From Candidatus Omnitrophota bacterium (GTDB lineage: Bacteria; Omnitrophota; Gorgyraeia; 2-01-FULL-45-10), in the NCBI GenBank assembly GCA_030695905.1, contig JAUYOL010000001.1:66023-130022 (forward strand): DNA of 64,000 bases, read 5' to 3'. The translations under genes and the position numbers were made by a program. Numbering within the stretch: the stretch's first letter is position 1; every line of letters starts with the position of its first letter. A model generated the notes under the pieces. That model did not search any database. It saw only the letters and a program-made list of their open reading frames with translations, and was not told where the DNA came from. Positions 7,131-45,013 of this stretch are shown piece after piece.

Positions 7131-7166
7131 TTTTACATGTCTCCTAATACGGGTAAAAAAGCAGGC

Positions 7167-7529: not shown

Positions 7530-7530
7530 A

Positions 7531-9399: not shown

Positions 9400-9409
9400 A
9401 TTTAGCTAC

Positions 9410-9784
9410 TTAAGCCTTCCCGCTCTCTCTATCTATTATCTCTACTATGCTATCAAGCAGAGAATCCATGCTTGCCGATTTTTCCAGATATTCATCCGCG
9501 CCGGAATATTTGGCTATGGGAGCCGATATTGCCGGATAGCCGGTGAGAAACACGGTTTTTGTATCAAGCTTATTCGTTTTAACATACTTAGCGAGCTCCA
9601 AGCCCGTAAGCCCCGGCATATTAAAGTCCACAAATATTATGTCGTAGTGGTTACTTTTTATCATATCCAATGCCCTGTCTCCGTCATAAGCAAAATCCAC
9701 GCGATGGCCTTTTCCCGTTAAAAATTTCTTTATTATACCTATGAGATCCTTATCGTCATCGGCGATAAGTATATTCTTTTCCAT
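9410..9784 (-). CDS. response regulator receiver protein (CheY-like)
   Basis: ILIADDD ... DIIFVDFNMPGLTG ... REC fold, 124 aa. Confidence 0.8.
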   Translation of the reverse strand: MEKNILIADDDKDLIGIIKKFLTGKGHRVDFAYDGDRALDMIKSNHYDIIFVDFNMPGLTGLELAKYVKTNKLDTKTVFLTGYPAISAPIAKYSGADEYLEKSASMDSLLDSIVEIIDRESGKA

Positions 9785-9799
9785 ATTGGTACCTCCAAT

Positions 9800-10255
9800 C
9801 TATTTGGGCGGTATTTGGTTTAATAAGAGCCAATATAGCCCCAGCTCCGAGACCGCCGTGACAAACTTATCAAACTCTACGGGCTTGGGTATGTAGCTAT
9901 TTGCCCCATATTTATAGCTTTTAACCAGGTCCTCCTCCTCTTTTGAAGAGGTCAGTATTACAACGGGTATTGATTTGGTTTTATCGTCCGTCTTTATTTT
10001 GCGCAATACTTCCAGGCCGTCCACCTTTGGAAGCTTTATATCGAGCAGTATTACTTTCGGCCTGATGCCGTTATTGCCATTCTTTTTTGCCGCATATGCG
10101 CCTTCGTGGAAGATAAAGTCGAGGGCCTCAGCGCCGTCCTTTACCACATAAACTTTATTGGCAAGCCTTCGCTTTTCTAAAACCCTCAAGATAAGCTCGA
10201 TATCGTCAGGATTATCCTCAACCAAAAGAATGTCAGCCGCTTCTTTTATTCCCAT
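9800..10255 (-). CDS. response regulator receiver protein
   Basis: [10 protein letters not shown] ... [12 protein letters not shown] ... YIPKP REC signature. Start set at the internal Met, overlapping the upstream kinase by 23 nt. Confidence 0.75.
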
Positions 10256-12053
10256 GGTTACCCCCTTTTTTAGGCAGCGCGAAATAAAACGTTGCCCCTT
10301 CACCGGTTTTGCCTTCTGCCCAGATCCTGCCCCCGTGCCGGTCAATGATCTGACGCGCGATAGCCAGGCCGACTCCTGTTCCCTCGAACTGGGCTTCATC
10401 ATGGAGCCTCTGGAATATTTCAAATAATTTATCCATATATTTCATATCAAATCCTACGCCGTTATCTTTCACATAATATTTATTTTCTTTCGCGTCGCTT
10501 ATACAGCCTATCTCAATAGTACCCATTTTTTTAGATCTTGTAAATTTGGCTGCGTTTGACAGTATATTGTACCAGACATGATGCATAAGGCTTGGATCGC
10601 CATTTGCGGGAGGGATATCTTTTATATCTATCTTTAATGTTCGGTCAGGCGTTATCTCATCCTTCATATCTTCTAATACACATTTTACGATTTTTTCCAT
10701 ATCGATATGGCGCATTTGTACCTTTTGGCGTCCCAAGTGCGCGAATCGAAGCAGGTCTTCTATCAGCAGGCCCATCTTTTTCACATTTTTGCGTATAGTG
10801 ACAAGGTTATGCTTGCCGGCATCATCGAGCTTATCACCATAATCTTCCAGTAGCATACGGCTAAATCCGTCTATTGATCGAAGAGGGGCCCGAAGATCAT
10901 GCGATACGGAGTAATTGAAGGCATCGAGCTGTTTATTCGTCTCCTCAAGCTCCGTCGTGCGCTCTCTCGCCAATTCTTCGAGATGCCCGCGATATTGCTC
11001 TAATTCATTCTCTATCTTCTTGCGCTCGGAAATTTCCCTGCTTAATCTCTCAAGCGTGCCGGCAGTAGTCTTGGCTATATAAAATGACGCAGCGGCAGAT
11101 AGCACCAAAACAAAGACAAATATACCTATAAGAAAATTTCTTAGCGTTGTTACATCGGTAAATGCTTCGTCGCAGTCTATTTTTGCCACTATGCCCCATT
11201 CGGAAGAGGGTATATAGTCCCAGGCCGCTATAACATCCCTATTTCGATAGTCGGTCGAATGGCCGCCCCCTTTTACGCCTAATACAGCACGCTGGGCAGG
11301 TATGGCCGTTTTTTCTCCTATGCGGATCTTTTTTGTAAGAGTCGCTTTGGGATCGTGCCGAAGAGGATTTAGAAAGAGGATCTCGTTCCCTATTTTTTTG
11401 CACAGCAACGTCTCTCCGGTATTGCCCAGTCCCGTTGTGTCCTGGACAAGATTATAGAATTGGGTCATATTGACCTCGAAAACTATGACACCTACAAGGA
11501 GGCCATCGGAGCCAAGAACAGGAGCGCTTATAAGAAGCGCTGGTTTGCCTTCCCGCATCTCATCCAAAAATATATCTGTAAAATATACGCCGGTTTTTCC
11601 CTCGGAAAAGGCTTTTTGTTCCGAGTCTTGCAGGCTTCGCAGAAGATGCTTTGGGTATTGGCGGGGATTTGAAGTGTATACTATCTTTCCGGTGGGTTCA
11701 ACTAATATAATTTCGTATAGATCCAGAATGTACTGCATTGGCCTTAATTGTTCGTCCAGGGCCTCTTTGGCAGACATGAATTCAGCCTTCGATGTGTCAC
11801 CCGAAAGCCTTGTCAATATTGGCAGATTTTTCCTGATCATCCAGAAATTCTGCGCCATCTTTATGCTATTCTCAAGTCCTTTGAAGTATGTGTTGATTTT
11901 ATCTGCCTTGAAGGCTACTATGTCTTCAAGCGAGGAGATGTGATGCTTTTCAATCGATCGTGCATAGTTAATGAAAGTTAAAGCGGCAATAAGAATAGTT
12001 GGGATTAAAGCGATGGCAAGAAAAATAAAGGTAAGCCTTGACCTGATAGACAT
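10233..12053 (-). CDS. sensor histidine kinase with periplasmic Cache-like domain
   Basis: Two TM helices around a ~270-aa extracytoplasmic domain. His[13 protein letters not shown]. HATPase_c [12 protein letters not shown]. Confidence 0.85.
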
Positions 12054-13779: not shown

Positions 13780-13871
13780 AATCTGTTAGAAATAAAAAAA
13801 CTTGCTTTTGCCCATTGTAAATTACTATCTTATGATATATACTCTAATTAAGAGAAAAGAAAGAAATCTAT

Positions 13872-13958
13872 ATCGATAAAGGCAAACCTAGCGAAAGCTA
13901 TGGGACGCAAAACTAAAGAACCTAAAGCCGTAAGGCCATGGTAGTCAGTCGCCGAAAA
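13872..13958 (+). ncRNA. candidate c-di-GMP-I (GEMM) riboswitch
   Basis: GGCAAACC ... tagcGAAAgcta (GNRA hairpin) ... GGGACGCAAA ... gccGTAAggc ... GGTAGTCAGTCGCC. This closely follows the Vc2-type GEMM-I consensus. Sits in the 5' leader of ORF 14029. Confidence 0.55.
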
Positions 13959-14028: not shown

Positions 14029-14349
14029 ATGCGCTCTATGGCAAAGCAGGTATTAAAAATAGCAATCCTGGCTATAATTTTGACCATAGTCGCTCTATAT
14101 ACCCCGGTATATTTTTCTGGACCTTATGGTCTATCTTACAGCTCCACCATCCATGCCTCCGCACAGGAAAAAAACGATAACATTGTGATAGATAGCTATT
14201 GCGAATCAAGCGGTGTTAATTCGATAATAAATCTTGAAAACTGCAGTATGGCCAACAAAATCGCAATGGAGAAGGGCCAGATAAGGATAGTAAGAGATAA
14301 TGCCGGAGAGCCTGAAAACGCTTACGCGAAAAATATAGAAGATGAATAA
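14029..14349 (+). CDS. hypothetical secreted/membrane protein (riboswitch-controlled)
   Basis: N-terminal hydrophobic signal/anchor. Lies downstream of the GEMM-like leader. Confidence 0.5.
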   Translation: MRSMAKQVLKIAILAIILTIVALYTPVYFSGPYGLSYSSTIHASAQEKNDNIVIDSYCESSGVNSIINLENCSMANKIAMEKGQIRIVRDNAGEPENAYAKNIEDE

Positions 14350-14414: not shown

Positions 14415-14810
14415 ATGGATAAAAAACCTTATATTCTTGTAGTGGACGATGAAAGCGACGCGCGCTCGATGGTGATAGATTTTCTGAAAGAGCGCTATGA
14501 GTGTGAGTTTGCCGAGGCAAAAGACGGCGAAGAGGCGGTAAACTTTTTGAAGTGTCACCCATGCGACCTGATGATCCTCGATATAAAGATGCCTAAAAAA
14601 GGCGGTATCGCGGTAATAAAAGAAGCGAGAGAGATTAACCCAAAGCTCGATATATTAGTGGTATCAGCCTGGGTGAGCGACGAAGTGTCTCAGGAAGCGG
14701 TTGAAAGCGGCGCGACCGACTATCTGGTCAAGCCGATAGACCTTAAAGTTGTGGCAATGAAATTTTCCGATATCTTAAAGAAGAAAGGGTATCTGGTTAG
14801 TAAGATTTAG
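14415..14810 (+). CDS. response regulator receiver protein (stand-alone)
   Basis: ILVVDDESD ... LMILDIKMPKKGG ... YLVKP. Confidence 0.8.
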   Translation: MDKKPYILVVDDESDARSMVIDFLKERYECEFAEAKDGEEAVNFLKCHPCDLMILDIKMPKKGGIAVIKEAREINPKLDILVVSAWVSDEVSQEAVESGATDYLVKPIDLKVVAMKFSDILKKKGYLVSKI

Positions 14811-18672: not shown

Positions 18673-18711
18673 AAATAGACTTTGTGCTGTAAATATGGTA
18701 TTATTGCCCAC

Positions 18712-19644
18712 ATGAAGAAGACTTTAAGGATACTGGGGCTGGTATTACTGATAGGGATAGTCTATTCTCTTATCCCCGTCACAGCACTGTATTTAGGGAA
18801 AGATGTAAGCGGGCCAACCAATGAACAGATCATCGAAAAGCTGAAAAACAATAAGGGTAATGTATTTTCGTTTATTGTTTTCGGCGACAACCACGCAGGC
18901 TTTATATTTAATGACAGCGCTTTCTTAAAAATAATACACAATATAAACAGGGAAAATAGATTCAAGAAGCTGAATATAGACTTTGTGACGAACCTCGGCG
19001 ATATATCCTTCATTAAAGGCACAGAGTGGGATTACCGTTTATATGACAGGCTGCGCGCAAAAATAAAATGGCCGGTCATAAGCTTGATGGGTAATCATGA
19101 CGATGAAAAAGGCAGCGACCGCAGGTTTAAAAAATATTTAGGCAAGAAAGAGTTCACCTTTACCGATCGGAACTCATACTTTATAGTTTTGGACAATAAT
19201 ATAACTTCGTTATCGGAAGAGCAGTGCAAGTGGCTCGAAGAGGAGCTGCAAAAATCAGCGTCTTACGCTCACCGTTTCATATTCATGCATAAACAGGCTA
19301 TGTCATTGTACCAGCAATCGTGGTTCAGGCCGGAATTGGGCAGCTGGTCCTACCGATTCATGAAGTTGTGCGAAAAATACAAGGTGGATATTGTGTTTGC
19401 CGGCCATGAACACATGTTCAGAGAGGCAACTTATGGCGGCGTGCGGTATGTAATGTCAGGTGGAGCGGGGATGCTTAACCAGATACCGGAAGCCGATGGC
19501 GGATATCTGCATTACCTGGTGGTACGCGTGTATGGCGATTATGTAGATTTCGAAGTGCGCAAGATTTTCCCGCCGCTTTGGGAATATTTCACATACTATA
19601 TGTGGAAAGAGCTGTTTTATCTTTTGAAGGATGTATTTTGCTAA
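18712..19644 (+). CDS. calcineurin-like metallophosphoesterase
   Basis: GDNH, GNHD and GHEH metal-binding motifs. N-terminal signal/anchor. Confidence 0.7.
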   Translation: MKKTLRILGLVLLIGIVYSLIPVTALYLGKDVSGPTNEQIIEKLKNNKGNVFSFIVFGDNHAGFIFNDSAFLKIIHNINRENRFKKLNIDFVTNLGDISFIKGTEWDYRLYDRLRAKIKWPVISLMGNHDDEKGSDRRFKKYLGKKEFTFTDRNSYFIVLDNNITSLSEEQCKWLEEELQKSASYAHRFIFMHKQAMSLYQQSWFRPELGSWSYRFMKLCEKYKVDIVFAGHEHMFREATYGGVRYVMSGGAGMLNQIPEADGGYLHYLVVRVYGDYVDFEVRKIFPPLWEYFTYYMWKELFYLLKDVFC

Positions 19645-19654: not shown

Positions 19655-20749
19655 ATGCGCATATTAAGAGATTACATATTAAAGGAATTTTTCCACTCGT
19701 TTTTGCTCTCAATAGTAGTATTCACATTCGCCTTCCTGATAGGTAACATCATACAGATAGCGAACCTTGTAATAAATAAGGGCGTAAACCTGCTATCGGT
19801 GATGCAGCTGTTATTCTTCATGATACCGTGGCTCTTAAGTTTCACATTTCCGATGGCGTCACTTACATCGGTAATACTTACATTCGGGAGATTTTCCAGC
19901 GACGGCGAGCTTACCGCGATGAAGGCCAGCGGAATAAGCCTTTACCGCATAGCGTTTCCTATAATAATGGTGGGGGCTATGATAAGCGCCGCGACGTTTA
20001 TATTAAATGACCAGATATCGTCAAACGCGTCTTACGCGTCGAGAAAAGTCATAAAAGAGATAGGTCTAAAAAACCCGACGGCCTATCTTGAGGCCGGTAC
20101 TTTTATAAGAGGTTTTGAGAATTATGTAATATTCATATACGATGTTAAAGGGAACAAATTCAAAAATATAAGAATATACCAGCCTCAGGAGGGCAAGCCA
20201 ACCCGCACCATAGTGGCGGAGTCGGGCGAGATAAACACTTTTCCCGAAAAAAATCTGCTGGAACTGAAACTATTTAACGGCACAAGCGAAGAACCGTCGC
20301 CTACGGATCCGGAAAATTTTTACAAATTGAATTTCAGGACCTATTATATGACGATAGACCTTGCTAAGATCCTCAAGAAAGAGAAGATAGACAAAAAAAC
20401 CCGTGAAATGACGATGAAAGAACTGCGTGTCGAGATCAAAAAAGATATAGCGCAAAAGATAGACCCGATGCCTGTGCTGGTAGAAATGTACAAAAAGATA
20501 AATATGTCGATAGCGTCGTTTGTGCTTATACTTATAGGCATTCCTCTTGGCATAAGGGCGCACAGGAGTGAGAAATCCATAGGTTTCGGAATAAGCCTTC
20601 TATTATTTGCCATGTACTGGGGGGTGTTTTTGGGCGGTATAGCGATGTCGCTGCGGGGGACGTTACCGCCGTCGATAGGAGTCTCTTTACCCAATTTTGT
20701 ATTTTTTGTGGTTGGTGTGGTGGTGTTTATATTTACAGCAAGGAGGTAG
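19655..20749 (+). CDS. LptF/LptG-family LPS export permease
   Basis: YjgP/YjgQ topology (TM1-3, a periplasmic beta-jellyroll, then three C-terminal TM helices). N-terminus MRILRDYILKEF. Confidence 0.7.
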   Translation: MRILRDYILKEFFHSFLLSIVVFTFAFLIGNIIQIANLVINKGVNLLSVMQLLFFMIPWLLSFTFPMASLTSVILTFGRFSSDGELTAMKASGISLYRIAFPIIMVGAMISAATFILNDQISSNASYASRKVIKEIGLKNPTAYLEAGTFIRGFENYVIFIYDVKGNKFKNIRIYQPQEGKPTRTIVAESGEINTFPEKNLLELKLFNGTSEEPSPTDPENFYKLNFRTYYMTIDLAKILKKEKIDKKTREMTMKELRVEIKKDIAQKIDPMPVLVEMYKKINMSIASFVLILIGIPLGIRAHRSEKSIGFGISLLLFAMYWGVFLGGIAMSLRGTLPPSIGVSLPNFVFFVVGVVVFIFTARR

Positions 20750-20902: not shown

Positions 20903-21853
20903 ATGGTAGATATTCACGATATAGTTATAGTGGGCGGCGGGCCCGCGGGCCTTACCGCCGGTATTTACGCTTCACGCGCCCGCATGAATACGCTTCTACT
21001 GGAAAAGATCGCCTGCGGCGGGCAGATATTGACAGCCGATGTAATAGAAAATTTTCCCGGGTTCCCCTGCGGTACGAATGGGCCGGACCTGGCGGACTTT
21101 ATGCTGAAGCAGGCCGAGCATTTTGGCCTTGTGATCTCTACGCGTGAAGTTGCCAAGATATTACCAAAAAGCAGCCAATCCGACCCTTTCCTGATAAAGA
21201 CGGTCGAAGGCGATGACATAAAGGCTCTTTCTGTAATAATATCCACCGGAGCTGACTGGAACGCTTTGGGCGTGCCGGGTGAGGATAAACTAAGGGGTAG
21301 GGGAGTTTCATACTGCGCGACATGCGATGGGCCGCTTTTTAGGAACAAAGAAGTAGTCGTTGTGGGCGGAGGAGATACCGCGCTGGGCGAGGCGATATAT
21401 CTGACGCGTTTTGCCAGTAAAGTTACCGTTATACACAGGCGCGACGCTTTAAGGGCAACGCGCATATTGCAGGAAAGAGCGTTTGCCAATAAAAAAATGG
21501 AGCTTTGCCTAAAGTCGGTTGTTACCGAAATAGTGGGGACCAGCCGTGTCGAAGGCGTAAAAGTTAAAAATACGGCGACTTCCGAAGAAAAAACCATTAG
21601 GACTGACGGTGTATTCGTGCTTATAGGCCTTTCACCAAATTCAGGCATGTTTAAGGATCTGCTGAAGCTGGACGAAAAAGGCTATATCATATCAGACGAA
21701 GATATGAAGACTTCCATAGATGGTATATTTGCGTGCGGGGATGTCAGGAGCAAGCCATTAAGGCAGGTTGTTACGGCCACGGGAGAAGGCGCAACCGCCG
21801 CGGTCAGCGCCCAGCATTACGTCGAGAAGCTAAAAGGAACCGATTATAAATAG
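20903..21853 (+). CDS. trxB: thioredoxin-disulfide reductase
   Basis: FAD-binding GGGPAG. Redox-active CATC. NADPH motif GGGDTA. Confidence 0.9.
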   Translation: MVDIHDIVIVGGGPAGLTAGIYASRARMNTLLLEKIACGGQILTADVIENFPGFPCGTNGPDLADFMLKQAEHFGLVISTREVAKILPKSSQSDPFLIKTVEGDDIKALSVIISTGADWNALGVPGEDKLRGRGVSYCATCDGPLFRNKEVVVVGGGDTALGEAIYLTRFASKVTVIHRRDALRATRILQERAFANKKMELCLKSVVTEIVGTSRVEGVKVKNTATSEEKTIRTDGVFVLIGLSPNSGMFKDLLKLDEKGYIISDEDMKTSIDGIFACGDVRSKPLRQVVTATGEGATAAVSAQHYVEKLKGTDYK

Positions 21854-21895: not shown

Positions 21896-21970
21896 GCCGA
21901 GGTAGCTCAGTGGTAGAGCGCTGCGCTGAAAACGCAGGCGTGGGCAGTCCGATTCTGCCCCTCGGCACCA
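21896..21970 (+). tRNA. tRNA-Phe (anticodon GAA)
   Basis: Acceptor gccgagg/cctcggc. Loop ctGAAaa. T arm ggcag-tccgatt-ctgcc. CCA. Confidence 0.85.
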
Positions 21971-22009: not shown

Positions 22010-23191
22010 ATGCAAGATAAGATAATTCAGTTAAGAAAAGGTAAAAAAGGCAGGCTCAAACCCGGCCATCCCTGGATATTCAAGGGCCAAATACTTAAGC
22101 TGACCTCATCCGTGAGGCCCGGCGATATCGTCACGGTAATAAGCAGCGAAGATGACTTTATAGGCCGCGGCTATTATAACCCCGCTTCCGACATATCTAT
22201 ACGACTGCTAACATTTAACGAAGAGCCCGTAGACAGCGCCCTTATACACAGAAAAATAAAAGAAGCGGTAGAAAAGAGGGAATTTCTAAAAGAAATAACG
22301 AACGCAAAGAGGCTTGTGTTCAGTGAGGCAGACGCGATCCCCGGACTGATAGTCGATCTTTATAATGATACGCTTGTCATCCAAATCTATACGCTTGGGA
22401 TGGAAAAACTGAGAGAAGAGGCCTTGAGCGCTCTTAAGGACGTGGTAGGTCCAAAATATATATATGAGAAAAGTGATTCACCTTTCAGGAGGATAGAAAA
22501 ATTGAAATCGGTTAAATGCTGGGTGGGCACTCCGGGGCCCGCCGAAGTCGAAATCGACGAAGCCAAGGTGAAGTTTATAGTCGATATAGAAAAAGGGCAC
22601 AAGACGGGTTTTTATCTGGACCAGAGGCGGTCAAGGCTCGCTTTGCGCGCGATAGCAAAAGGTAAAAAAGTCCTGGACCTATTCTGTTATACCGGCGGGT
22701 TTTCCATAAATGCCGCTCTGGGCGGAGCAAAAAAGGTTCTCGGCATAGACGTAAAGTCCGACTGGCTTGATTTAGCCCGCAGGAACGCCGCTCTAAACAA
22801 TGTTTCCGGCGCGATCGACCTGCAGGCCAGCGACGCTTTCAACGCTATTAAAAACATCTGTAATTCCGGTGAAAAATTTGATATCATAGTAGTTGATCCT
22901 CCATCATTCTTAAGGAGCAAAAAGGATCTTATAACCGCAGCTAAAGGCTACAAGGAGATAAATACGCTTGCGTTCAAAAGCCTGGCTGACGACGGGGTCT
23001 TGTGCACGTTCTCCTGTTCGCACAATATGCCGAATAAGATGTTTTCCGATATAGTAAAAGACGCGGCGGCCTGCGGCGGGAAAAAATTCGTTATATTAAA
23101 AAGGTGCAGGCAGGACAAGGATCACCCGATATCCAGAGAAATTCCGGAAACAGAATACTTAAAAGGATATTTCTTAAAGACGGTGCAATGA
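22010..23191 (+). CDS. rlmI: 23S rRNA m5C methyltransferase, RlmI-like (PUA + class I SAM MTase)
   Basis: N-terminal GHPWIFKGQI PUA-like domain. SAM motif VLDLFCYTGGFS. Confidence 0.75.
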   Translation: MQDKIIQLRKGKKGRLKPGHPWIFKGQILKLTSSVRPGDIVTVISSEDDFIGRGYYNPASDISIRLLTFNEEPVDSALIHRKIKEAVEKREFLKEITNAKRLVFSEADAIPGLIVDLYNDTLVIQIYTLGMEKLREEALSALKDVVGPKYIYEKSDSPFRRIEKLKSVKCWVGTPGPAEVEIDEAKVKFIVDIEKGHKTGFYLDQRRSRLALRAIAKGKKVLDLFCYTGGFSINAALGGAKKVLGIDVKSDWLDLARRNAALNNVSGAIDLQASDAFNAIKNICNSGEKFDIIVVDPPSFLRSKKDLITAAKGYKEINTLAFKSLADDGVLCTFSCSHNMPNKMFSDIVKDAAACGGKKFVILKRCRQDKDHPISREIPETEYLKGYFLKTVQ

Positions 23192-24027
23192 GCGAAGTAA
23201 AAGATAAAAAACGAAATAGCGGTGTCAGTAACGCGTTCAAGCTGTCTATGGTCGTGTTGCTTTTCGCGCTTACATTCATAAGACTTGCCTGCGCGCTGTA
23301 TTTTCCATCCATAGAAATAATTTCAGATAAAATTCTCCTGGCGATAACATTATTTATAGTTGTATATTTATGGGTAAAAGAAGTAAGGGATTACCATCGC
23401 CTGCTTAGGCTGCACAAAAATTTGCAGATTACCAACGAACAATTAAAGGCTTCCGAAATCGACACCATAGCCGCGCTGATAAAAGCCGAAGAAGAAAAAG
23501 ACGGGTATACCCGCGGCCACTCCGATAGAGTGACTAAAATTTCACTGGCGATAGCCCAAGAGATGAATCTTGATAACGAGAAGAAGAGACTTATCGAACG
23601 CGCGGGCATACTGCACGATATAGGCAAGATAGGGATATGTGATTCGATACTGTGTAAAAAAGAAAAGCTGACAGACGAAGAATGGCTCGTTATAAAGAGC
23701 CATCCGGATAAGGGCGACAAGATTCTGGAGCCGTTAAAATTTCTGCCCACCGAAAGGGATATAATCTTAAGCCACCACGAACGCTATGACGGGAAAGGCT
23801 ATCCGCGCGGGCTTAAAGGCAGCCAGATACGCATAGAGGCGCTCATATTAGCGGTAGCCGACGCTTTTGACGCGATGAATTCCGCGCGTTCTTATAGACA
23901 GCCGCTTAGCAAAGAAGTTATAACGTCAGAATTGGAAAAATCGCGGGGCACACAACATTCGGCGGAAGTTGTTGACTATTTTTTAAGACTGCTTAAGAAA
24001 AGGCCGGAACTCTGGGAGAGGCAATGA
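23188..24027 (+). CDS. membrane-anchored HD-GYP phosphodiesterase
   Basis: HD motif ILHDIGKIG. HHERYDGKGYP. ATGA overlap with rlmI. Confidence 0.8.
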   Translation: MSEVKDKKRNSGVSNAFKLSMVVLLFALTFIRLACALYFPSIEIISDKILLAITLFIVVYLWVKEVRDYHRLLRLHKNLQITNEQLKASEIDTIAALIKAEEEKDGYTRGHSDRVTKISLAIAQEMNLDNEKKRLIERAGILHDIGKIGICDSILCKKEKLTDEEWLVIKSHPDKGDKILEPLKFLPTERDIILSHHERYDGKGYPRGLKGSQIRIEALILAVADAFDAMNSARSYRQPLSKEVITSELEKSRGTQHSAEVVDYFLRLLKKRPELWERQ

Positions 24028-24857
24028 AAAGAAGAATAGGTGAAATTTTAATGGCGAACGGCCTGATAACGAGGAAGATCCTTGACGAGGCGCTTGCTTA
24101 TCAACAGGCCCACGGAGGCAATATAACCCAATACCTGATAGCTCATGGCCATATAAAAGAGGAAGAACTTGCCAAGTGTATTTCAATTCAATTCGGATAT
24201 CCGTACCTGCCGCTAAGGGCCTATGAGATACCCGCGAGTATCGCGAAGATAGTACCCGTGGCTATAGTAAAAAAATACTGGCTCATACCGGTAGATAAGA
24301 TTCAAAATATTATAACGCTTGTCATGGCCGATCCGTTCGACGAGGACGCGCTAAACGAGGTTGAGAAGGCTACCGGGTGCAAGGTGCAGCCGTTTGTGGG
24401 CATACTGTCGGATATACTTAAGGCGATAGAAAAATATTACGGTATAAATGTCGGATATGAAGACCTGAAAAAAACCAGGGAAAAAGCCCCGCTTTTTATC
24501 GCCGAGGAAAAGTATGCCGGTGTCGAACGCAGAAGATCTCTAAGGTTACGCGCGAAGATAGCCGTGCATTTCCCGCTTCAGAATGAATATAAAAAATCCG
24601 AGACAAAAGATGTGAGCATGCATGGATTTTTGTTTGAGTCATCCAACGCGCTTCCGATAGGATCTGTGCTGGTAATGGATGTAGAGCTTCCAAAGGATAT
24701 AAATCCTTATCCGATACCCGCTATTGTAAAGGTGGCCAGAACCATAGAATTGCCAAACAAAGGTTTTGATGTAGGCGTCGAGATAATCAGGATAGCCAAG
24801 GAAGATCTGGAAAAGATTATGAACTACGCTTTGTCGCAGCAAACCGCGCAAAGATAG
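24024..24857 (+). CDS. MshEN (T2SSE_N)-PilZ two-domain c-di-GMP receptor
   Basis: N-terminal RIGEILMANGLITRKILDEALAYQQ matches the MshEN c-di-GMP binding motif. C-terminal PilZ motifs RRRSLRLR and DVSMHG. Confidence 0.7.
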   Translation: MKRRIGEILMANGLITRKILDEALAYQQAHGGNITQYLIAHGHIKEEELAKCISIQFGYPYLPLRAYEIPASIAKIVPVAIVKKYWLIPVDKIQNIITLVMADPFDEDALNEVEKATGCKVQPFVGILSDILKAIEKYYGINVGYEDLKKTREKAPLFIAEEKYAGVERRRSLRLRAKIAVHFPLQNEYKKSETKDVSMHGFLFESSNALPIGSVLVMDVELPKDINPYPIPAIVKVARTIELPNKGFDVGVEIIRIAKEDLEKIMNYALSQQTAQR

Positions 24858-24869
24858 TTTATTCAATAG

Positions 24870-25328
24870 ATGTTTTATAAATTATACCAAAAAATCAGGT
24901 TATTTTTACTATACCTATCCGGCCACAAAAGACAAGTTGCGGCGGCTGTGATAGAAAAAAATTCTAAGATACTCATTGCCAAAAGAAGAAGCGGTGACAC
25001 TCTCGGCGGGAAATGGGAATTCCCCGGAGGAAAGATAGAGCCGGGCGAGACACCGGAAGAATGCCTGACAAGAGAGCTAAAAGAAGAGTTTGATGTAGAG
25101 ACAGAGGTGGAAGGCTTTTTGTTATCCACGACATTCAGATATTTTCTGATTCCCATAGAATTGCTGGCATACAAAGTTAAGCATATATCAGGCGAGTTTA
25201 AAGCGAATGAACACGACGAGATAATGTGGGTATCCCCAAACGAATTCGATAGTTATGATCTTGTCAACGCGGATAAGCCCATAGCCAAAGTAATATTAGA
25301 AGCCAAAAATACGGGATATAAAACATAA
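24870..25328 (+). CDS. NUDIX hydrolase (MutT-like)
   Basis: Nudix box GGKWEFPGGKIEPGETPEECLTRELKEE. Confidence 0.8.
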   Translation: MFYKLYQKIRLFLLYLSGHKRQVAAAVIEKNSKILIAKRRSGDTLGGKWEFPGGKIEPGETPEECLTRELKEEFDVETEVEGFLLSTTFRYFLIPIELLAYKVKHISGEFKANEHDEIMWVSPNEFDSYDLVNADKPIAKVILEAKNTGYKT

Positions 25329-25336
25329 AAATAGGA

Positions 25337-25543
25337 GTGAAGAATATGTGGTACTTTATTATAATCATATCGGTGCTTTATGTGGGTTTCTTTATTTGGG
25401 CTACCATAGATTACAGGAAGAAAGAAAAAGTCCAGGAAAAAGATACGGATAAGTCTGTCTGCCGTTCCGAAAACTCTCTGGATGAGTATGGCAAGAAGAT
25501 GAATACCTCGGAAACCCCCGAATGCCCGGAGCCGGAAGAATGA
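25337..25543 (+). CDS. small membrane protein
   Basis: Single TM helix followed by an acidic tail. Confidence 0.3.
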   Translation: MKNMWYFIIIISVLYVGFFIWATIDYRKKEKVQEKDTDKSVCRSENSLDEYGKKMNTSETPECPEPEE

Positions 25544-25971
25544 CGAAGATCAGGCATTTAGCGCATAAAAAAGGTTTTACCCTTGTAGAAGTGCTGATAG
25601 CGGCTCTTATAATGGGAATAGGCCTTATTAGTGTTGGGGCCGCTATCTATGAACAATTCTCTTTTGTTGGCCAAATAAGGGAGAGGGTCATCGCGGACAT
25701 GGCCGCCCAGGAAGAGATCGAATATATTAGAGGGCTGCCGTTCAATACCATTATAAATTCTAATACAGCTTTCCCTAATCCTTCAAGCTTCAGTTCATTA
25801 TTAAACAATAACAATCCAAGCGTTGCCGTAGCGGTAGACAATTACCTAAGTGATCCTTCAAATAATATTCGCAGGGTTTCCGTTACTGTAAGCTGGGATT
25901 CCTTTATGGGCAGTAGATTACAAACAAACCTCGTTACTTTAGTAACGCGTAACGGTATTGACAGACAATGA
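25540..25971 (+). CDS. prepilin-type N-terminal cleavage/methylation domain pseudopilin
   Basis: KKGFTLVEVLIAALIMGIG class III signal. Confidence 0.7.
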   Translation: MTKIRHLAHKKGFTLVEVLIAALIMGIGLISVGAAIYEQFSFVGQIRERVIADMAAQEEIEYIRGLPFNTIINSNTAFPNPSSFSSLLNNNNPSVAVAVDNYLSDPSNNIRRVSVTVSWDSFMGSRLQTNLVTLVTRNGIDRQ

Positions 25972-26618
25972 TGTATATGGACCGGAAGAATAAAGGTTTC
26001 ACGATAGCCGAGATGCAGATAGCGTTGTTCGTGGCTACTATCATACTGATAGCCGCAATCTCTCTTTATATATTTTATTGGCGAGGATTTGTTACGGGCA
26101 ATACCGTTTTGGATATCTATTCTAATTCAAGGATGGCGATGGGGTGGATAGCAAAAGATGTCAGATCGGCCGCGGAGATATTGCCGCAATCCACAATTGT
26201 GTCGGGGCGCACAACTTCCGATAGCTGTATTGTTCTACAGGTACCGTCTATTGCCAATACCGGCGGCAGCGCCAGTGTTATACCGTCACAATTTGATGAA
26301 ATTGTTTATATAGTGCAAGACGGCAACCTGCAGCGTATCGTAACTCCGTACACAGCAGGGCTTACACCAAGCGTCAGGCCGCCTGAAAACCGCGCCGTAG
26401 CTCGTTATTGTAATTTGGTAACCTTTTACAAAGTAGATACCTCCACCGGTACATGGACGCCTTTATCAGGCTTTTTGGGCAGCGGCGGGAATTTATCCAC
26501 CATTAACAATATGGGCGTATCTTTGCCAATAAATGAGACTACCCTCTCTTTAAGCGGTGTAGAGACACAAAACTATTCGATAACCCCGACCATGGTATTA
26601 AGATTGCGGAATAAATAG
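25968..26618 (+). CDS. pilin-like minor pseudopilin
   Basis: KGFTIAEMQIALFV prepilin signal. Confidence 0.65.
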   Translation: MMYMDRKNKGFTIAEMQIALFVATIILIAAISLYIFYWRGFVTGNTVLDIYSNSRMAMGWIAKDVRSAAEILPQSTIVSGRTTSDSCIVLQVPSIANTGGSASVIPSQFDEIVYIVQDGNLQRIVTPYTAGLTPSVRPPENRAVARYCNLVTFYKVDTSTGTWTPLSGFLGSGGNLSTINNMGVSLPINETTLSLSGVETQNYSITPTMVLRLRNK

Positions 26619-26640
26619 GCGAGAAAGAGGTATAAAGTTT

Positions 26641-27867
26641 ATGCGTAGTAAAAAAAATAAAGGCGTTGTGCTGATTACGACCATTTTGATCGCGTCTATC
26701 CTAATAATAATCGCTATACCGTATATATCAAGAGTCGCTTCGGAATATAGGCTGATGTCAAAAATGTATAAATCAACTCTTGCTCTTAATTTAGCCGAAG
26801 CGGGTATAGAGCGGGCCATCTGGGAAATATGTTATAACAATAGCGATTTTTCGGGATGGGTGTATTCAAACGAGGCCAATATTCAAACATGGGCTATTTC
26901 AAACGCAGCGTTTAAAAACACAGCCGGCAAAACAGTCGGTTATTATGATCTTGCAGTTTCGCTTCCCGTAGGGACAACAACGCGGACAATTGTGTCCACA
27001 GCTTATGTGCCGGGTAAAAGTTCTCCGGACGCGACAAAAAAGATCACGGTCAATTATGCCGGGGGCCAGTATCATTTTACGAACGCGATTGCAGCCGCCG
27101 GTTCTAATCCAAGTATTACGGTAAGCGGCAATGTAATAGTGGATAGTTATGATTCTTCGGTCGGGCCTTATGGCAACCCGAATCAGACTAACACCAGGCA
27201 GGGTAATATACAAACCAACGGCCCCATAAACCTGACCGGTAACGCATATATATACGGTAATGCGAACCCCGGGCCAAGCTATCCATTCTCGGGCAATCCT
27301 CCGGTGTCCGGTTCTTATGCAACTTTGTCAGCTCCTATCAGTGTTAATCCCATACCTGCCGCGACTGTTAACGCCGCGCGAACGACTAATAATAACAGCA
27401 ATATTACCGTTACAAGCGATGGAAACACAACGGCCTATGCCGGCGGGGATGTTCTTAGCGTAAGCAGTAACGATATTTTGACACTCGCGGGCGGCACATA
27501 CTATTTTACTTCGATGAGTGTGTCCGGTAACGCCCAGATCAGCGTCAGCGGATCATCTATAATATACGTGGATGGCGGCAACGTATCAGTATCCGGCAAC
27601 GGGATTGTTAACAGTGGCACGCCGTTAAATCTGGCATTATATTCTACAGGCAATAATGTTACACTGTCCGGCAATTCGGCATATATCGGGACGGTATATG
27701 CGCCCGATGCTACTGTGCGGGTAAGCGGTAATGACAACTTTTATGGAGCTATTGTTTGCGGCAGCAGCGTTGATACAGGTAACGCGTCCATTCATTTTGA
27801 TTTAGCGCTGATAAACGCGCCTCAAGTCGTCGATAATGATAGAATTATTTCCTGGCTCGAAGAGTAG
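26641..27867 (+). CDS. PilX-like minor pilin with repetitive (VSGN) beta-rich C-terminus
   Basis: N-terminal hydrophobic prepilin-like helix. Repeated SGN/VSG motifs. Confidence 0.5.
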   Translation: MRSKKNKGVVLITTILIASILIIIAIPYISRVASEYRLMSKMYKSTLALNLAEAGIERAIWEICYNNSDFSGWVYSNEANIQTWAISNAAFKNTAGKTVGYYDLAVSLPVGTTTRTIVSTAYVPGKSSPDATKKITVNYAGGQYHFTNAIAAAGSNPSITVSGNVIVDSYDSSVGPYGNPNQTNTRQGNIQTNGPINLTGNAYIYGNANPGPSYPFSGNPPVSGSYATLSAPISVNPIPAATVNAARTTNNNSNITVTSDGNTTAYAGGDVLSVSSNDILTLAGGTYYFTSMSVSGNAQISVSGSSIIYVDGGNVSVSGNGIVNSGTPLNLALYSTGNNVTLSGNSAYIGTVYAPDATVRVSGNDNFYGAIVCGSSVDTGNASIHFDLALINAPQVVDNDRIISWLEE

Positions 27868-28078: not shown

Positions 28079-28169
28079 ATACAACCTATCTGATCTATAC
28101 CATCGGACAGTTGTTCTATTTCATAGAACAGGCAGCATTTCCCTCTTTAAGAAAAACCTTGACATCAAT

Positions 28170-28215
28170 GTTCACTAATGGTATATTGTTCAGTAATTAG
28201 TGAACATTAAAAAGG
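28170..28215. promoter_or_regulatory. inverted repeats TGTTCAC...GTGAACA immediately upstream of abiEi-like gene (autorepressor operator candidate)
   Basis: tgttcactaat...attagtgaacatt followed by ggagtgaacatt, then the ATG. Confidence 0.45.
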
Positions 28216-28216
28216 A

Positions 28217-28912
28217 GTGAACATTATGAATGGCCATACAAATGGAACGAATATTTTTGCTGATAAGGCGACTTTCATTCTAAGGAAGATGCTGTCTAAT
28301 CCCGAAAAGAAGTGGGTTACGCGCGACTTTATGGGTGATGACGGGGTAAGCCTTGGAATGGCGCAGGGAGTGCTTGAAACGATGGCGAAGAAGGGCTACA
28401 TCGAGCGGGTCAAGCGCGGTCCCGATAGCTATGCGCTTCTTACGAATAAAAACGAACTCATTAGCGATTGGGTATCGGAGTATCGGTTTGACCTAAACGA
28501 AGTCGATGTTTATTATTCCCCTGATAAGAATATTCTATTGAAGCTTAAGGATTATCTGAAAGATAAACAATACGCGCTCACTCTTCATTCGGGCGCTAAC
28601 CTGATAACATCTTTTGTGGTTACAGATCAAATCGATCTGTATTTTAAGCCGGAAAACTGGAAGAAAGAGATCCTTGAGTTGCGACAACAGCTTGACTTAA
28701 AGGAGCTTGTAAGAGGCGGTAATGTCCGCATTATTTGCCCCGCGTACAAAAATAGCGTATTTTATGGGGCCCGGACAATAAAGGGATGCAAAGTTGTTTC
28801 CGGTCTACAGCTTTACCTTGATCTCTACAATTTTAAACCTCGTGGCCGCGAGCACGCGGAATATCTGAAAAAAGCATTGGAAGAGAAGGGGAAGAGCTTG
28901 TATGAATCTTGA
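28217..28912 (+). CDS. AbiEi-like wHTH antitoxin/transcriptional regulator
   Basis: N-terminal winged-helix. Overlaps the downstream nucleotidyltransferase gene by 11 nt. Upstream palindromes. Confidence 0.45.
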   Translation: MNIMNGHTNGTNIFADKATFILRKMLSNPEKKWVTRDFMGDDGVSLGMAQGVLETMAKKGYIERVKRGPDSYALLTNKNELISDWVSEYRFDLNEVDVYYSPDKNILLKLKDYLKDKQYALTLHSGANLITSFVVTDQIDLYFKPENWKKEILELRQQLDLKELVRGGNVRIICPAYKNSVFYGARTIKGCKVVSGLQLYLDLYNFKPRGREHAEYLKKALEEKGKSLYES

Positions 28913-29699
28913 GAAAATCGAAGCCGTATTTTTTAGTGTGCTTGAAGATATCAGCGGTTATCTTCCGGATCTCACGCTTGTCGGAGGATGGATGCCGTAC
29001 ATCTATTCAAATTTTCTTTGGAAAACATCCGTAAAAAATCCAGTAACCACGGTTGATATTGATTTTGGCGTGGATCAATCCGTTACCGGAGATTATTCAA
29101 AGACAATTTTTGAAACGCTTTCCCCTTTGGATTACAAAGAGCGTCATTTTAAGATGGATAGGCCGTTTCCTGTAGTGCTCTATAAAGAAAAGGTTCCGGT
29201 AGAGTTTATTACTTATCCTACCGTCGATATTAAAGCGATCGAGAAGATGGTGGGTCAGCAAATACAGATAAACAAGATCGATAAATTTGATTTTCTATTA
29301 AAACACCGGATCTCGATAAACGTTCAGGGTAAGCAAAAGAACAAAAGCTATCTTATCAATTGCCCAAGCCCATCGGCTTTTTTGTATCACAAGGGAGCGA
29401 CTTTTATTTATAGGGAGAACGAAGAGAAGCGGGCTAAGGATTTGTACTACATGTACTTCATCTTGCGGTACGCGCCTGACATCGATGCTATTTTGAAGGA
29501 AGTATCCCAGTACAGAGAAAAAGGGCATTTAATGGATGTGCCGGATAATATAAATAAGTTCTTCGAAAGAGTTTCAAGTCAAGGGTGCCTTTTGATAGAA
29601 GAGGAAAACGGCCCCGATGAATACATTCATGATGTTCGGCAGGACATATTTGATAGATTTAATGGGCTGAAGGAAGCATTAAAAGGGATCGGCAAGTGA
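28902..29699 (+). CDS. AbiEii-like nucleotidyltransferase (DUF1814-type toxin)
   Basis: Pol-beta NTase motif GGW ... TVDIDF (GSx9-13DxD). Confidence 0.5.
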   Translation: MNLEKIEAVFFSVLEDISGYLPDLTLVGGWMPYIYSNFLWKTSVKNPVTTVDIDFGVDQSVTGDYSKTIFETLSPLDYKERHFKMDRPFPVVLYKEKVPVEFITYPTVDIKAIEKMVGQQIQINKIDKFDFLLKHRISINVQGKQKNKSYLINCPSPSAFLYHKGATFIYRENEEKRAKDLYYMYFILRYAPDIDAILKEVSQYREKGHLMDVPDNINKFFERVSSQGCLLIEEENGPDEYIHDVRQDIFDRFNGLKEALKGIGK

Positions 29700-30550: not shown

Positions 30551-30588
30551 GCTGGCGTAGCTCAGTTGGTAGAGCAGCGGTTTCGTAA
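30551..30588 (+). mobile_element. attL: 38-nt 5' fragment of tRNA-Thr(CGT), identical to 53618-53655, ending at anticodon loop
   Basis: gctggcgtagctcagttggtagagcagcggtttcgtaa is identical to the 5' part of the intact tRNA-Thr. It is preceded by a TATAAT (30531-30536) that fits the original tRNA promoter. Confidence 0.7.
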
Positions 30589-38955: not shown

Positions 38956-40416
38956 ATGGTGAAAAGTTCTTGGACTTCAGATGATACAAAAACATTAGAT
39001 ATTTTACTGGATTACCAAAATTCTCGAATAGACGCCAATGAGAAATCATCGCAGGAAGAAATAAGAAAGTTATTATTAAAGACAGAAGATGTCATTGACC
39101 TTGCTAATAGCATAATCGCTACTAAAGGGCTTTTGCGAGGAGAAAGAATAATTATTGTTAAAGAAGATGGCAATTCTATAGTCCTAGAAGGCAATCGCAG
39201 AACTTGTGCTTGCCAACTATTACTAAGCCCAGAATTAATTCCAAAAGAATTTAGAACAAAATTCCCTATTTGTCATGACGGAGGGATAAAAAAAGAACTA
39301 GAGCATTTAAAATCTGATATTGCGCCAGATAGATTGGCAGCGGAAATTACTATTACCAAGAGGCATACTGAACCGGGAGTTTCGCAATGGACTCCCATTG
39401 CGAAACAAAGAAGAATTACGCGTCTTGTTGAGGCAAGGAGATCTATTGAAGAGTTAATGTCTGAATTTGGAATGACACGGTCAAACATTTTGAAAACTTT
39501 GAAAGATTATCATATTTTTCAATATGCAAAAAATCTTTCCATTTGGAACAAGGTTGAAAAAGATATTTTGAACGATCCAACTCTCTCAATCAATCCTTTC
39601 ACTCGGTTTTTTGATTTAAAGGGTGTTAAGAAAGCCTTGGAATTGAAACATAAAGAAACTGGCGAATTGGAAATCGAGATAAAAAAAGAACTTTTTGACA
39701 AAATCATAGCTTTTATTGCCCGCGAATTTTTAATTCCCGATAAAGGCACAAGTAAGCTTGGTGCAAATACTCGCACAACGCCAGAAGAGTTGTTTCAAAG
39801 TATTTCTTCACATGATAAAGATATAAGAGCATTTCTAAAAAAGAAGCTAAAATTGGATAATTTGAAGAATAAGGAAAAAGCTAAATCTGGGGCCGAATCA
39901 GCAGAACAAACAGGTACGGCTAGGACTTCAGGTGCAACAGCTTCTACGCAAACATCGGCAAAGTCTGGAAAGTTCTTTGAAAATCTTCCCTGTCCTTTAA
40001 AAGATAACCAGCTATTGTTAGTTGTGAATGAAATATCGGATATAAATTATAAGAAATATCGCCTATCAGCAACCTTTCTTGTAAGAGCTTTAGTTGAAAG
40101 AATCTTGAATCATTGCATCGACAAATATGCGCTTAAGAAACAATTGCTAAAGGAGTTTTACACTAAGCGCAAGGGGTGTAAAGGCATAGAACCAGGGCTA
40201 GAGTTTGTGGTTGATTTTTGTATAAAAAATCATGATCAAATGTTCAATGTAAATACAGTACGAAATATTCTAAGAAAATGGAAAGGGGATAAGGATCTAT
40301 TAGATATTATCATTCATGGTCGTTGGGCCAATCCTAGCATTACAAACCTTGAACATTTCGCATCTCTCATTCGACCTACGGTTGAACAAATTCTTAGCGG
40401 GAATGCTTTGAAATGA
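38956..40416 (+). CDS. ParB/Srx-like N-terminal domain protein (486 aa) embedded in RM operon
   Basis: VLEGNRRTCA matches the ParB-N/DGQHR-like DGxxR signature. Low-complexity Ser/Thr/Ala linker. Unknown C-terminal domain. Confidence 0.45.
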   Translation: MVKSSWTSDDTKTLDILLDYQNSRIDANEKSSQEEIRKLLLKTEDVIDLANSIIATKGLLRGERIIIVKEDGNSIVLEGNRRTCACQLLLSPELIPKEFRTKFPICHDGGIKKELEHLKSDIAPDRLAAEITITKRHTEPGVSQWTPIAKQRRITRLVEARRSIEELMSEFGMTRSNILKTLKDYHIFQYAKNLSIWNKVEKDILNDPTLSINPFTRFFDLKGVKKALELKHKETGELEIEIKKELFDKIIAFIAREFLIPDKGTSKLGANTRTTPEELFQSISSHDKDIRAFLKKKLKLDNLKNKEKAKSGAESAEQTGTARTSGATASTQTSAKSGKFFENLPCPLKDNQLLLVVNEISDINYKKYRLSATFLVRALVERILNHCIDKYALKKQLLKEFYTKRKGCKGIEPGLEFVVDFCIKNHDQMFNVNTVRNILRKWKGDKDLLDIIIHGRWANPSITNLEHFASLIRPTVEQILSGNALK

Positions 40417-44932: not shown

Positions 44933-45013
44933 CCAAGGGTGATTAGATAGGTGCCTTGAAAGATAGTGGGAAACGTATCGAGTAAAATATTTGTAGCCAA
45001 AAGGTATATTTTC

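Follow-up and report, generated by a model that had tools for sequence, protein, structure and literature searches.

An Omnitrophota protein family joins an MshEN-like fold with a rewritten half-site to a PilZ domain predicted to sense cyclic di-GMP

Does a protein that carries both an MshEN-like and a PilZ domain read cyclic di-GMP (c-di-GMP) twice, and does it act on a pilus? The question is raised by the gene at 24024–24857 in a 64-kb stretch of DNA from a Candidatus Omnitrophota metagenome-assembled genome; this whole stretch is the window, and its features are given in window positions. The gene follows an HD-GYP gene and precedes pilin-like genes, and a sequence-only reading of the locus proposed a receptor with two independent c-di-GMP modules that gates an adjacent fiber. 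For the product, referred to here as the receptor, neither dual sensing nor the gating of a pilus is demonstrated. The picture we favor, with a probability of about one half, is of a soluble c-di-GMP effector from an Omnitrophota-specific family in which the PilZ domain senses, the MshEN-like domain provides the output, and the HD-GYP protein is the partner.

The receptor is identical to an NCBI protein, and automatic annotation names the family "PilZ domain-containing protein". Pfam located MshEN (PF05157) at residues 57–140 (58.1 bits; cut-off, 23.1) and PilZ at residues 168–268 (31.8 bits; cut-off, 22.5), and the MshE-related "c-di-GMP_motif" domain of NCBIfam matched residues 4–56 (48.4 bits; cut-off, 38). 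An AlphaFold2 model was built with 61 homologues in the input and has a mean predicted local distance difference test (pLDDT) score of 77 and a predicted TM-score (pTM) of 0.46. The modeled order is a helical bundle (helices 5–57), an alpha/beta subdomain, a low-confidence linker (residues 144–171), and a beta-barrel with a terminal helix. The modeled PilZ strands lie between residues 180 and 256 and are followed by a helix at 259–276 (pLDDT ~85), which gives the six-stranded barrel and C-terminal helix of a PilZ domain. Foldseek searches of the PDB matched the N half to Vibrio cholerae MshEN with c-di-GMP (5HTL; E = 1.8e-8, target-normalized TM-score 0.74) and also to PilF GSPII-A/B and Xanthomonas citri PilB-N. 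The C half matched the c-di-GMP-bound PilZ domains of MotI, PP4397, YcgR, Alg44, MapZ, and MrkH, and also PA4608. Pfam, the model, and Foldseek together place in the N half both parts of an MshEN domain, the MshEN_N four-helix bundle and the MshEN_C alpha/beta subdomain. The strings quoted in the sequence-only reading are all present: RIGEILMANGLITRKILDEALAYQ is residues 4–27, RRRSLR holds R170 and R174, and DVSMHG is residues 196–201. Its assignment of the two folds was correct, but an MshEN site takes two tandem motifs, and the string quoted for it covers the first alone.

The extent of the family was established from a set of 143 full-module proteins made up of word-indexed search homologues and cluster representatives. 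The word-indexed search returned 81 two-domain homologues at 46–86% identity, and every named one is from Omnitrophota. When 1.84 billion cluster representatives were searched exhaustively with a profile, 271 matched below 1e-30; about 85 of the 50%-identity representatives listed contain the whole module, and all named cluster members are Omnitrophota. The GTDB species representatives have the full module in nine loci only, all in Omnitrophota. The architecture was sought outside the phylum and was not found among the GTDB species representatives or the named cluster members. Short soluble forms of fewer than 300 residues, like the one in the window, account for 81 of the 143 proteins. The other 62 have an N-terminal extension of ~70–750 residues, most with a predicted N-terminal transmembrane helix, and in the extensions that were scanned Pfam detected no pilus domain, just weak matches of the coiled-coil type. 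A paper naming or describing the MshEN-PilZ combination was not found in the searchable literature, a coverage that leaves subscription-only papers outside.

The PilZ site is conserved across the family. R170 and R174 of the RxxxR motif are present in 143/143 members. In the (D/N)xSxxG motif (D196-V-S198-M-H-G201), the first position is Asp or Asn in 141, the Ser is kept in 132, and the Gly in 139 of the 143. The linker that leads into RxxxR is conserved even though it is modeled with low confidence, and the conserved residues are P156, L157, F158, Y164, G166, and E168. Judged by its RxxxR, its (D/N)xSxxG, and its modeled barrel, the receptor is a canonical PilZ protein with every testable feature in place. 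The placement of RxxxR at the linker end is the geometry typical of two-domain PilZ receptors; in those of the YcgR/PlzD type, the ligand binds at the domain junction and re-orients the N-terminal domain.

The MshEN site, by comparison, is asymmetric. The c-di-GMP site of MshEN consists of two 24-residue motifs and a five-residue joiner (Wang et al. 2016); the published motif is [RK]hGxxhhxx[GAS]hhxxxxhxxxhxxQ, and its relaxed form admits Asn at position 1. Motif I of the receptor fits, and across the family Lys/Arg is at position 1, Gly at position 3 in 123/143, and Gln at position 24 in 127/143. The spacer, QAHGG, has the required five residues. Motif II (NITQYL...Q) keeps its hydrophobic positions and its final Gln (121/143 at position 24), and the consensus Arg and Gly are replaced by Asn and Thr. 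At its position 3, 110 of the 143 members have Thr and none has Gly. Among the 81 short forms, 73 have T35, 71 have Q36, and 73 have Y37, and these residues are strongly conserved in the long forms also; T35 is invariant in the 61-sequence alignment A1.

Published substitutions indicate what this asymmetry would cost. The G40I mutant of V. cholerae MshEN, changed at the same position, was not stabilized by c-di-GMP, and its authors infer poor binding, if any (PMC5013675). Replacement of the Gly by Ala (Ala41) in engineered PilF GSPII-A subdomains raised the dissociation constant (KD) 10–30 fold and altered the binding mode, and Ser at position 1 abolished binding in PilF GSPII-A constructs (PMC12002112). 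Position 1 tolerates more variation than position 3, as PilF GSPII-B has Lys and Leu there and still binds at 6 nM (PMC11731258). We therefore take the Thr of motif II as the decisive deviation. Half-site I is intact but half-site II has Thr for Gly, so canonical, high-affinity MshEN-type binding of c-di-GMP by the receptor is doubtful on its sequence, and we do not file a protein whose second motif departs from the consensus as a canonical MshEN sensor, even though it has the fold. Within the picture we favor, the odds are somewhat against a pocket that still binds c-di-GMP at a useful affinity. The near-invariance of T35-Q36-Y37 and the retention of both terminal Gln argue for selection rather than decay on this surface. 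The proposal of two independent c-di-GMP modules survives for the presence of both folds and for the PilZ site, which is canonical family-wide; it falters at motif II, where position 3 is never Gly and where mutants of this kind bind poorly. MshEN-PilZ is an uncharacterized, phylum-restricted union of two widespread c-di-GMP receptor folds in which the second half-site has been rewritten.

Several characterized systems resemble parts of the receptor. V. cholerae MshE MshEN (5HTL) and PilF GSPII-B/C have the same two-subdomain fold, and the receptor has, as they do, motif I, a spacer of five residues, and a Gln at the end of each motif; it differs in not being attached to an ATPase and in having Asn and Thr in motif II where they have Arg/Leu and Gly. 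The best PDB sequence match of the receptor is the non-binding PilF GSPII-A of Thermus thermophilus (9G1W), which likewise has one near-perfect motif and a degenerate motif II that deviates at positions 1 and 3. Unlike the receptor family, GSPII-A has lost both terminal Gln and belongs to an ATPase. YcgR, PlzD/VCA0042, MotI/DgrA, and PP4397 share the C-terminal PilZ barrel and an RxxxR-bearing linker that connects it to an output domain at the N terminus, but that domain is YcgR-N/PilZN in the YcgR/PlzD type and MshEN/GSPII in the receptor. In X. citri, the PilB N-domain binds PilZ, and PilZ binds the c-di-GMP receptor FimX (7LKM/7LKO; PMC8389850); in the ATPases of type II secretion systems (T2SS) the equivalent ND1 subdomain binds GspL/EpsL. 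The likeness to the X. citri complex is that an MshEN-like ND0+ND1 is paired with a PilZ fold, covalently in the receptor and non-covalently in X. citri, where the pair controls a pilus ATPase. There PilB-N and PilZ lack c-di-GMP motifs and FimX senses, whereas the PilZ motifs of the receptor are canonical. The 64-kb window encodes no FimX or PilB, and docking in cis of PilZ onto MshEN as in 7LKO was considered and is unsupported, since the pTM is 0.46 and the linker is disordered in the model. The receptor is not a system of the PilB-PilZ-FimX type, and the likeness is limited to the pairing of folds. The non-covalent PilB-N:PilZ complex is a structural precedent for cooperation between an MshEN-like domain and PilZ.

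The closest sequence relatives of the receptor N half are encoded beside pilus motor genes. About 300 further genome matches to this half do not belong to the MshEN-PilZ family. In nearly all of 71 loci (L017–L087), a stand-alone MshEN protein of ~148 residues is encoded directly before one or two PilB-like genes of ~570 residues, most with a GspE-type Walker A motif; a few contigs end before the second gene. Locus L044 (8550–16223) has the order HAMP-GAF-GGDEF, MshEN, PilB, PilB, REC-HD-GYP, PilC. A count of GGDEF domains in the pilB loci was set aside as unreliable, as a simple pattern gave none though Pfam finds one in L044. The receptor MshEN half scores 112–142 bits against the stand-alone proteins (40–47% identity) compared to 23–97 bits against the N-termini of the PilB-like proteins, and on these scores the receptor looks like a paralogue of the PilB-associated MshEN proteins to which a PilZ domain was added. 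The stand-alone proteins share the QFGYPYLPL segment with the receptor. They differ in having no PilZ, in lying beside PilB, which the receptor gene does not, and in their Gly at position 3 of both motifs (70/71; Gln at position 24, 71/71 in both). Their motif II has Leu at position 1, as in the high-affinity GSPII-B. The N-domains of PilB-like proteins of the same phylum have mostly lost the position-3 Gly and the terminal Gln. The sequences suggest that the c-di-GMP sensor for the Omnitrophota pilus motor acts in trans. A pilus-machine target for the receptor is plausible but unproven, because its MshEN half is closest to the stand-alone proteins upstream of pilB; within the picture we favor, we put the odds of this target somewhat below even.

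In one protein the module is fused to a pilin-like domain. P0176 (L088 4444–6615, 723 aa) has MshEN and PilZ joined through a transmembrane segment to a DUF7305 domain, and its C-terminal part is homologous to the third pilin-like gene of the window (E = 1e-17). Its gene lies on a contig of 60% GC, where a secretin gene of divergent orientation is ~2.7 kb away. A second protein with this architecture was not found in a database search. The fusion was entertained as a strong functional link and was downgraded to anecdotal: it could be an assembly artefact, and as a singleton it is given little weight.

Other proteins carry MshEN/GSPII domains in series. Eight proteins of 1000–1300 aa (P0105, P0118, P0143, P0152, P0157, P0158, P0163, and P0203) have 3–7 tandem MshEN/GSPII domains, and three of them also show a GspE-type Walker A. 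Three consecutive GSPII domains have been stated to be reported only in the Deinococcus-Thermus phylum.

The sequence-only reading placed an HD-GYP gene before the receptor gene, and this is confirmed. The protein encoded at 23188–24027 matched HD_5 (117 bits), HD (74 bits), and, in part, a response-regulator c-di-GMP phosphodiesterase model. Its translation contains LHDIGK and SHHERYDGKGYP (HHERYDGKGYP); the HD fold and the HHExxDGxGYP motif are both present, and two hydrophobic helices lie at the N terminus. It belongs by sequence to the HD-GYP family and is a putative c-di-GMP phosphodiesterase. The gene shares an ATGA with each neighbor, at its start with the stop of rlmI and at its stop with the receptor start. 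Comparison of 19 neighborhoods showed that an HD-GYP gene adjoins the module in 7, in three arrangements, and is the sole recurrent partner. It precedes the module in the same orientation in L004, L011, L089, the P0005 contig, and the window, follows it immediately in L009, and is divergent in L010, where it encodes a larger HD-GYP protein as opposed to the orthologues found elsewhere. Adjacency that is kept through rearrangement supports the phosphodiesterase and the receptor as a functional pair and is the best contextual signal among the neighborhoods. Because the receptor gene adjoins one for an enzyme that would destroy c-di-GMP, the product is probably a local receptor of the c-di-GMP signal. 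The pair can be compared with NfrB, an MshEN-glycosyltransferase, and DgcJ, in which a c-di-GMP turnover enzyme has a dedicated receptor. NfrB models match the receptor N half, and the difference is that the window pairs a phosphodiesterase with the receptor, in adjacent, overlapping genes. In Xanthomonas the HD-GYP protein RpfG works with PilZ proteins and is tied to the pilus.

The window is dense in c-di-GMP components, namely a riboswitch, a GGDEF-HD-GYP protein, the HD-GYP protein, and the PilZ protein. A c-di-GMP-I (GEMM-I) riboswitch aptamer at 13871–13956 (+; 69.3 bits against a gathering score of 35) precedes a 106-aa ORF with a signal- or transmembrane-like N terminus (14029–14349) and a REC-only response regulator (14415–14810). 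No c-di-GMP riboswitch was found before the pilin genes, and the one at 13871–13956 is the only one in the window. A signaling cluster on the minus strand at 5082–12053 comprises a PAS-PAS-GGDEF-HD-GYP hybrid (5082–7130), a PAS histidine kinase (7531–9399), a REC protein (9410–9784), and a dCache histidine kinase (10233–12053). The riboswitch and the PAS-GGDEF-HD-GYP protein indicate that c-di-GMP is in use here.

Gene order around the receptor is listed in Table 1. From 18.7 to 27.9 kb every gene is on the plus strand and the packing is close. The rlmI gene is the conserved upstream neighbor in the window's sub-clade, with orthologues before the module in L004, L005, L008, L089, and the P0005 contig; it is outside the signaling module. 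The start of the first pilin-like gene overlaps the stop of the 65-aa ORF. A terminator and promoter scan of 21.8–28.4 kb found no convincing intergenic terminator on the plus strand, which is consistent with read-through from rlmI to 27867 and is not proof of it.

Table 1. Coordinates of the receptor domains and of the surrounding genes in the window
Feature	Position	Strand	Evidence or remark
Metallophosphatase gene	18682–19644	+	
LptF/G gene	19655–20749	+	
Thioredoxin reductase-like gene	20903–21853	+	
tRNA-Phe	21896–21970	+	
RlmI-type 23S rRNA m5C methyltransferase	22010–23191	+	Pfam PUA_3 and Methyltrans_SAM; NCBIfam RlmI below cut-off
Membrane-anchored HD-GYP protein, 279 aa	23188–24027	+	HD_5 and HD matches
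MshEN-like + PilZ protein (receptor), 277 aa	24024–24857	+	Pfam, NCBIfam, AlphaFold2, Foldseek
MshEN motif I, residues 4–27, RIGEILMANGLITRKILDEALAYQ	24033–24104	+	Fits the 24-residue consensus
MshEN motif II, residues 33–56, NITQYLIAHGHIKEEELAKCISIQ	24120–24191	+	Non-canonical: Asn at position 1, Thr at position 3
MshEN_C (GSPII/N1E-like) alpha/beta subdomain, residues 57–140	24192–24443	+	Pfam PF05157; modeled strands 87–93, 96–101, 120–125 and flanking helices
Inter-domain linker, residues 144–171, into RxxxR	24453–24536	+	pLDDT < 50; conserved residues
PilZ domain, residues 168–268	24525–24827	+	RxxxR = R170/R174 (24531–24545); DxSxxG = 196–201 (24609–24626)
NUDIX (MutT/NudG-like) hydrolase	24870–25328	+	NUDIX 71.8 bits; NCBIfam MutT/NudG just below cut-off
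65-aa ORF, single hydrophobic helix (membrane)	25346–25543	+	Gene call and sequence
Minor-pilin-like gene 1, 143 aa	25540–25971	+	MTKIRHLAHKKG/FTLVE class III signal (KKG/FTLVE); N_methyl 30 bits, cut-off 21.2
Minor-pilin-like gene 2, 216 aa	25968–26618	+	KNKG/FTIAE signal; N_methyl 17.8 bits, below cut-off
Pilin-like gene 3, 408 aa	26641–27867	+	DUF7305 53.3 bits, pAdhesive_15 27.2 bits

The downstream pilin genes were the basis for the proposed fiber. The order given in the sequence-only reading is real, but the NUDIX gene and the 65-aa ORF intervene between the receptor and the pilin-like genes. A pattern scan of the 64 kb found two class III prepilin signals, G/FTLVE and G/FTIAE, in genes 1 and 2, and only gene 1 passes the N_methyl cut-off. 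Gene 1 also matched PilV and GspI models below cut-off, and gene 2 gave a weak match to a prepilin peptidase-dependent protein model. Of the three genes called prepilin-like, these two carry signals, and the third has a hydrophobic, pilin-like N-terminal anchor after KKNKG that lacks Glu5, a weak ComGG-like N-terminus, and a C-terminal DUF7305/adhesive beta-helix-like domain. No GspE/PilB ATPase, PilC platform, prepilin peptidase, or secretin was found with the pilin genes in the 64-kb window, and the earlier statement that a full GspE ATPase is missing here is borne out.

Neighbors of the module were searched for pilin genes by pattern scan and phmmer over 15 loci, including the window and L004, and the P0005 contig was examined with Pfam. 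Pilin-like genes follow the receptor in three loci only: the window, the P0005 contig, and L004. The P0005 contig has the NUDIX, 65-aa ORF, and trio block as one unit, with three further genes between the receptor and the block. L004 has a PilV/W/X-like trio at the same position, with no similarity to the window's trio detectable beyond the N-termini. L089 and L008 have no trio, and in L089 the receptor is followed directly by an Omp85/ShlB-type gene. In L002 (62% identical) the next gene after the receptor is orthologous (664 bits) to the MFS gene that the window has at 54480. The 24.87–54.4-kb region of the window is absent there and is therefore taken as variable or accreted DNA; in it lie the pilin cassette, an AbiE pair, and an integrative element of 23 kb. 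Distant members lie in MFS/Rnf, glycerol metabolism, ECF sigma, glutamate-synthase-like, and GAF-kinase/REC contexts. A conserved operon of receptor and pilin genes was rejected, as trios occur in three loci only, among them the window, and that of L004 is not detectably homologous to the window's. The claim that c-di-GMP gates the adjacent fiber is weakened by the restriction of the trio to close relatives, by its place in a variable region, and by the non-pilus contexts of most members. The receptor may regulate a pilus, but the order of genes at the locus is not enough to show it.

The variable region has contents of its own. An AbiEi-like antitoxin and AbiEii-like nucleotidyltransferase pair (28217–29699, +) lies between the pilin genes, which end shortly before it, and the integrative element, and it is preceded by the region's best sigma-70-like promoter match (28159–28187). 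The integrative element spans 23.1 kb (30551–53655) between 38-nt direct repeats of the 5' half of tRNA-Thr (30551–30588 and 53618–53655), and its tyrosine integrase (52513–53616) abuts the intact tRNA-Thr. Its cargo includes a type I restriction-modification system, a D12 methylase, a PD-Lambda-5_A-like protein (38956–40416), a Schlafen/AlbA_2 protein, and an NrS-1-type primase-polymerase (49314–51689). The type I restriction R subunit (41339–44932, +; 1197 aa) has a C-terminal Peptidase_S24 domain (LexA/UmuD-like) at residues 1066–1187, which looks like an unusual fusion. The element also encodes, at 44966–46768 (+), a 600-aa protein with an N-terminal proteasome-subunit-like domain; its DUF6941 match is weak and below cut-off, and it had no match among defense models. 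In three close relatives (L004 11574–16828, L089 7859–9505, and the P0005 contig), the variable stretch after the receptor terminates with a giant ORF of >1300 to >2800 aa, an Omp85/ShlB-type transporter, or both. This suggests that the position is a hot spot for surface proteins in the close relatives; the window's equivalent holds the AbiE pair and the integrative element. Elsewhere in the family, L091 has two paralogous MshEN-PilZ genes 2 kb apart (3019–3888 and 5813–6673) that adjoin STAS, REC, and GAF-histidine kinase genes, and L092 has a similar kinase/REC neighborhood.

From the folds, motifs, conservation, and neighborhoods, we infer how the effector we favor would work. c-di-GMP would bind the canonical PilZ site, formed by RxxxR at the linker end and (D/N)xSxxG on the barrel. 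The bound ligand would clamp the conserved flexible linker and re-orient the N-terminal domain, as in YcgR, PlzD, and MotI. The MshEN-like domain would most likely be the output or partner-binding end that mimics the N-domain of a pilus-assembly ATPase, and it would engage a partner normally contacted by that N-domain or by a stand-alone MshEN protein. The overlapping, membrane-anchored HD-GYP protein would be the cognate phosphodiesterase that sets the ligand level locally. The NUDIX, small ORF, and minor-pilin cassette would be a sub-clade-specific neighbor and a possible target that is not part of the conserved module.

Several observations weigh against this mechanism. The inter-domain arrangement is modeled with low confidence (pTM 0.46). 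Q27, Q56, and the hydrophobic positions of the MshEN half are strongly conserved, so its pocket could still bind a nucleotide, contrary to a role in output only. No HD-GYP gene lies beside the module in 12 of the 19 loci, and in L008 (79% identical) and L005 (61% identical) it is missing and rlmI abuts the receptor gene. Most members are found among housekeeping or two-component genes and not pilus genes. Finally, MshEN domains also regulate non-pilus outputs, for example the NfrB glycosyltransferase (PMC8669469).

The alternatives divide on which pocket reads the ligand and on whether a pilus is involved. A true dual receptor would bind c-di-GMP at MshEN and at PilZ with two affinity thresholds and would gate the downstream three-pilin fiber through an ATPase encoded elsewhere. 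Much of the MshEN half is compatible with this: the score for the NCBIfam c-di-GMP motif model exceeds its cut-off (48.4 against 38 bits), motif I and the length of the spacer (5 residues) are canonical, a Gln closes both motifs in most members, and position 1 need not be Arg, given the Lys and Leu of GSPII-B at 6 nM and the Asn of the relaxed motif. The absence of the motif II Gly from all 143 members weighs against it, as Ile at this position abolished ligand stabilization and Ala cost 10–30 fold in affinity and changed the binding mode. The fiber half of the proposal draws on the trios in the window, the P0005 contig, and L004 and on P0176, in which the module is continuous with a relative of the pilin gene 3 product and whose gene is near one for a secretin. 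That association is limited to one sub-clade and a variable region, with L089 and L008 lacking the trio, P0176 is a singleton, and the ATPase, platform, and secretin are absent from the 64 kb. We regard the dual receptor as improbable.

The same neighborhoods raise the idea that the protein is an effector that senses through PilZ only and has nothing to do with pili, its MshEN-like part being a generic interaction domain (for a membrane or two-component partner, for example) and the pilin genes chance neighbors. This would explain the diverse contexts (MFS/Rnf, glycerol, ECF sigma, glutamate-synthase-like, and GAF-histidine kinase with REC genes), the 62/143 members whose N-terminal extensions show no pilus domains where scanned, and L002, which lacks 24.87 to 54.4 kb and has the MFS orthologue directly next. 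It fits poorly with the position of the N half's closest relatives directly upstream of pilB in nearly all 71 loci, with a fold that is the N-domain of pilus and T2SS ATPases and binds GspL/PilM-type partners or PilZ, and with the two different pilin trios at the same position in close relatives; we consider it rather unlikely. A further idea is that the altered MshEN pocket binds a nucleotide other than c-di-GMP (a hybrid or some other cyclic dinucleotide, for example) or forms a composite site with the PilZ-bound ligand. The conservation of T35-Q36-Y37 and of both terminal Gln points to selection and not to decay, by contrast with the degenerate PilB N-domains of the same phylum, which lose these positions. 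The idea is purely inferential, however; the published MshEN work consulted gives no other ligand, and the conservation could equally mark a protein–protein interface, which makes this reading very improbable. The PilZ-sensing effector with an MshEN-like output domain remains the picture we favor.

A bolder reading is that Omnitrophota have moved c-di-GMP control of the type IV pilus motor off the ATPase, whose N-domains have lost the binding motifs, and onto trans-acting MshEN paralogues that keep them, which would be the ~148-residue protein and the MshEN-PilZ family in its soluble or membrane-tethered forms. On this reading MshEN-PilZ would imitate the PilB N-domain in a way that the ligand can switch, and in it the asymmetric MshEN pocket and the PilZ site might read the ligand together; it would be a covalent counterpart of the Xanthomonas PilB-N:PilZ pair. 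We think it unlikely that this reading holds as it stands.

PilZ and MshEN are two widespread dedicated c-di-GMP receptor domains, and their union with a rewritten half-site is a natural experiment. It bears on the role of the MshEN fold away from an ATPase, on which share of the 53-residue site ligand binding requires, and on second-messenger wiring in an uncultured, ultra-small-celled phylum rich in pilus genes. If the MshEN half does not dock on the pilus machine, the family would be one more PilZ adaptor; if it does, the family would represent a new trans-acting coupling of c-di-GMP to pilus assembly.

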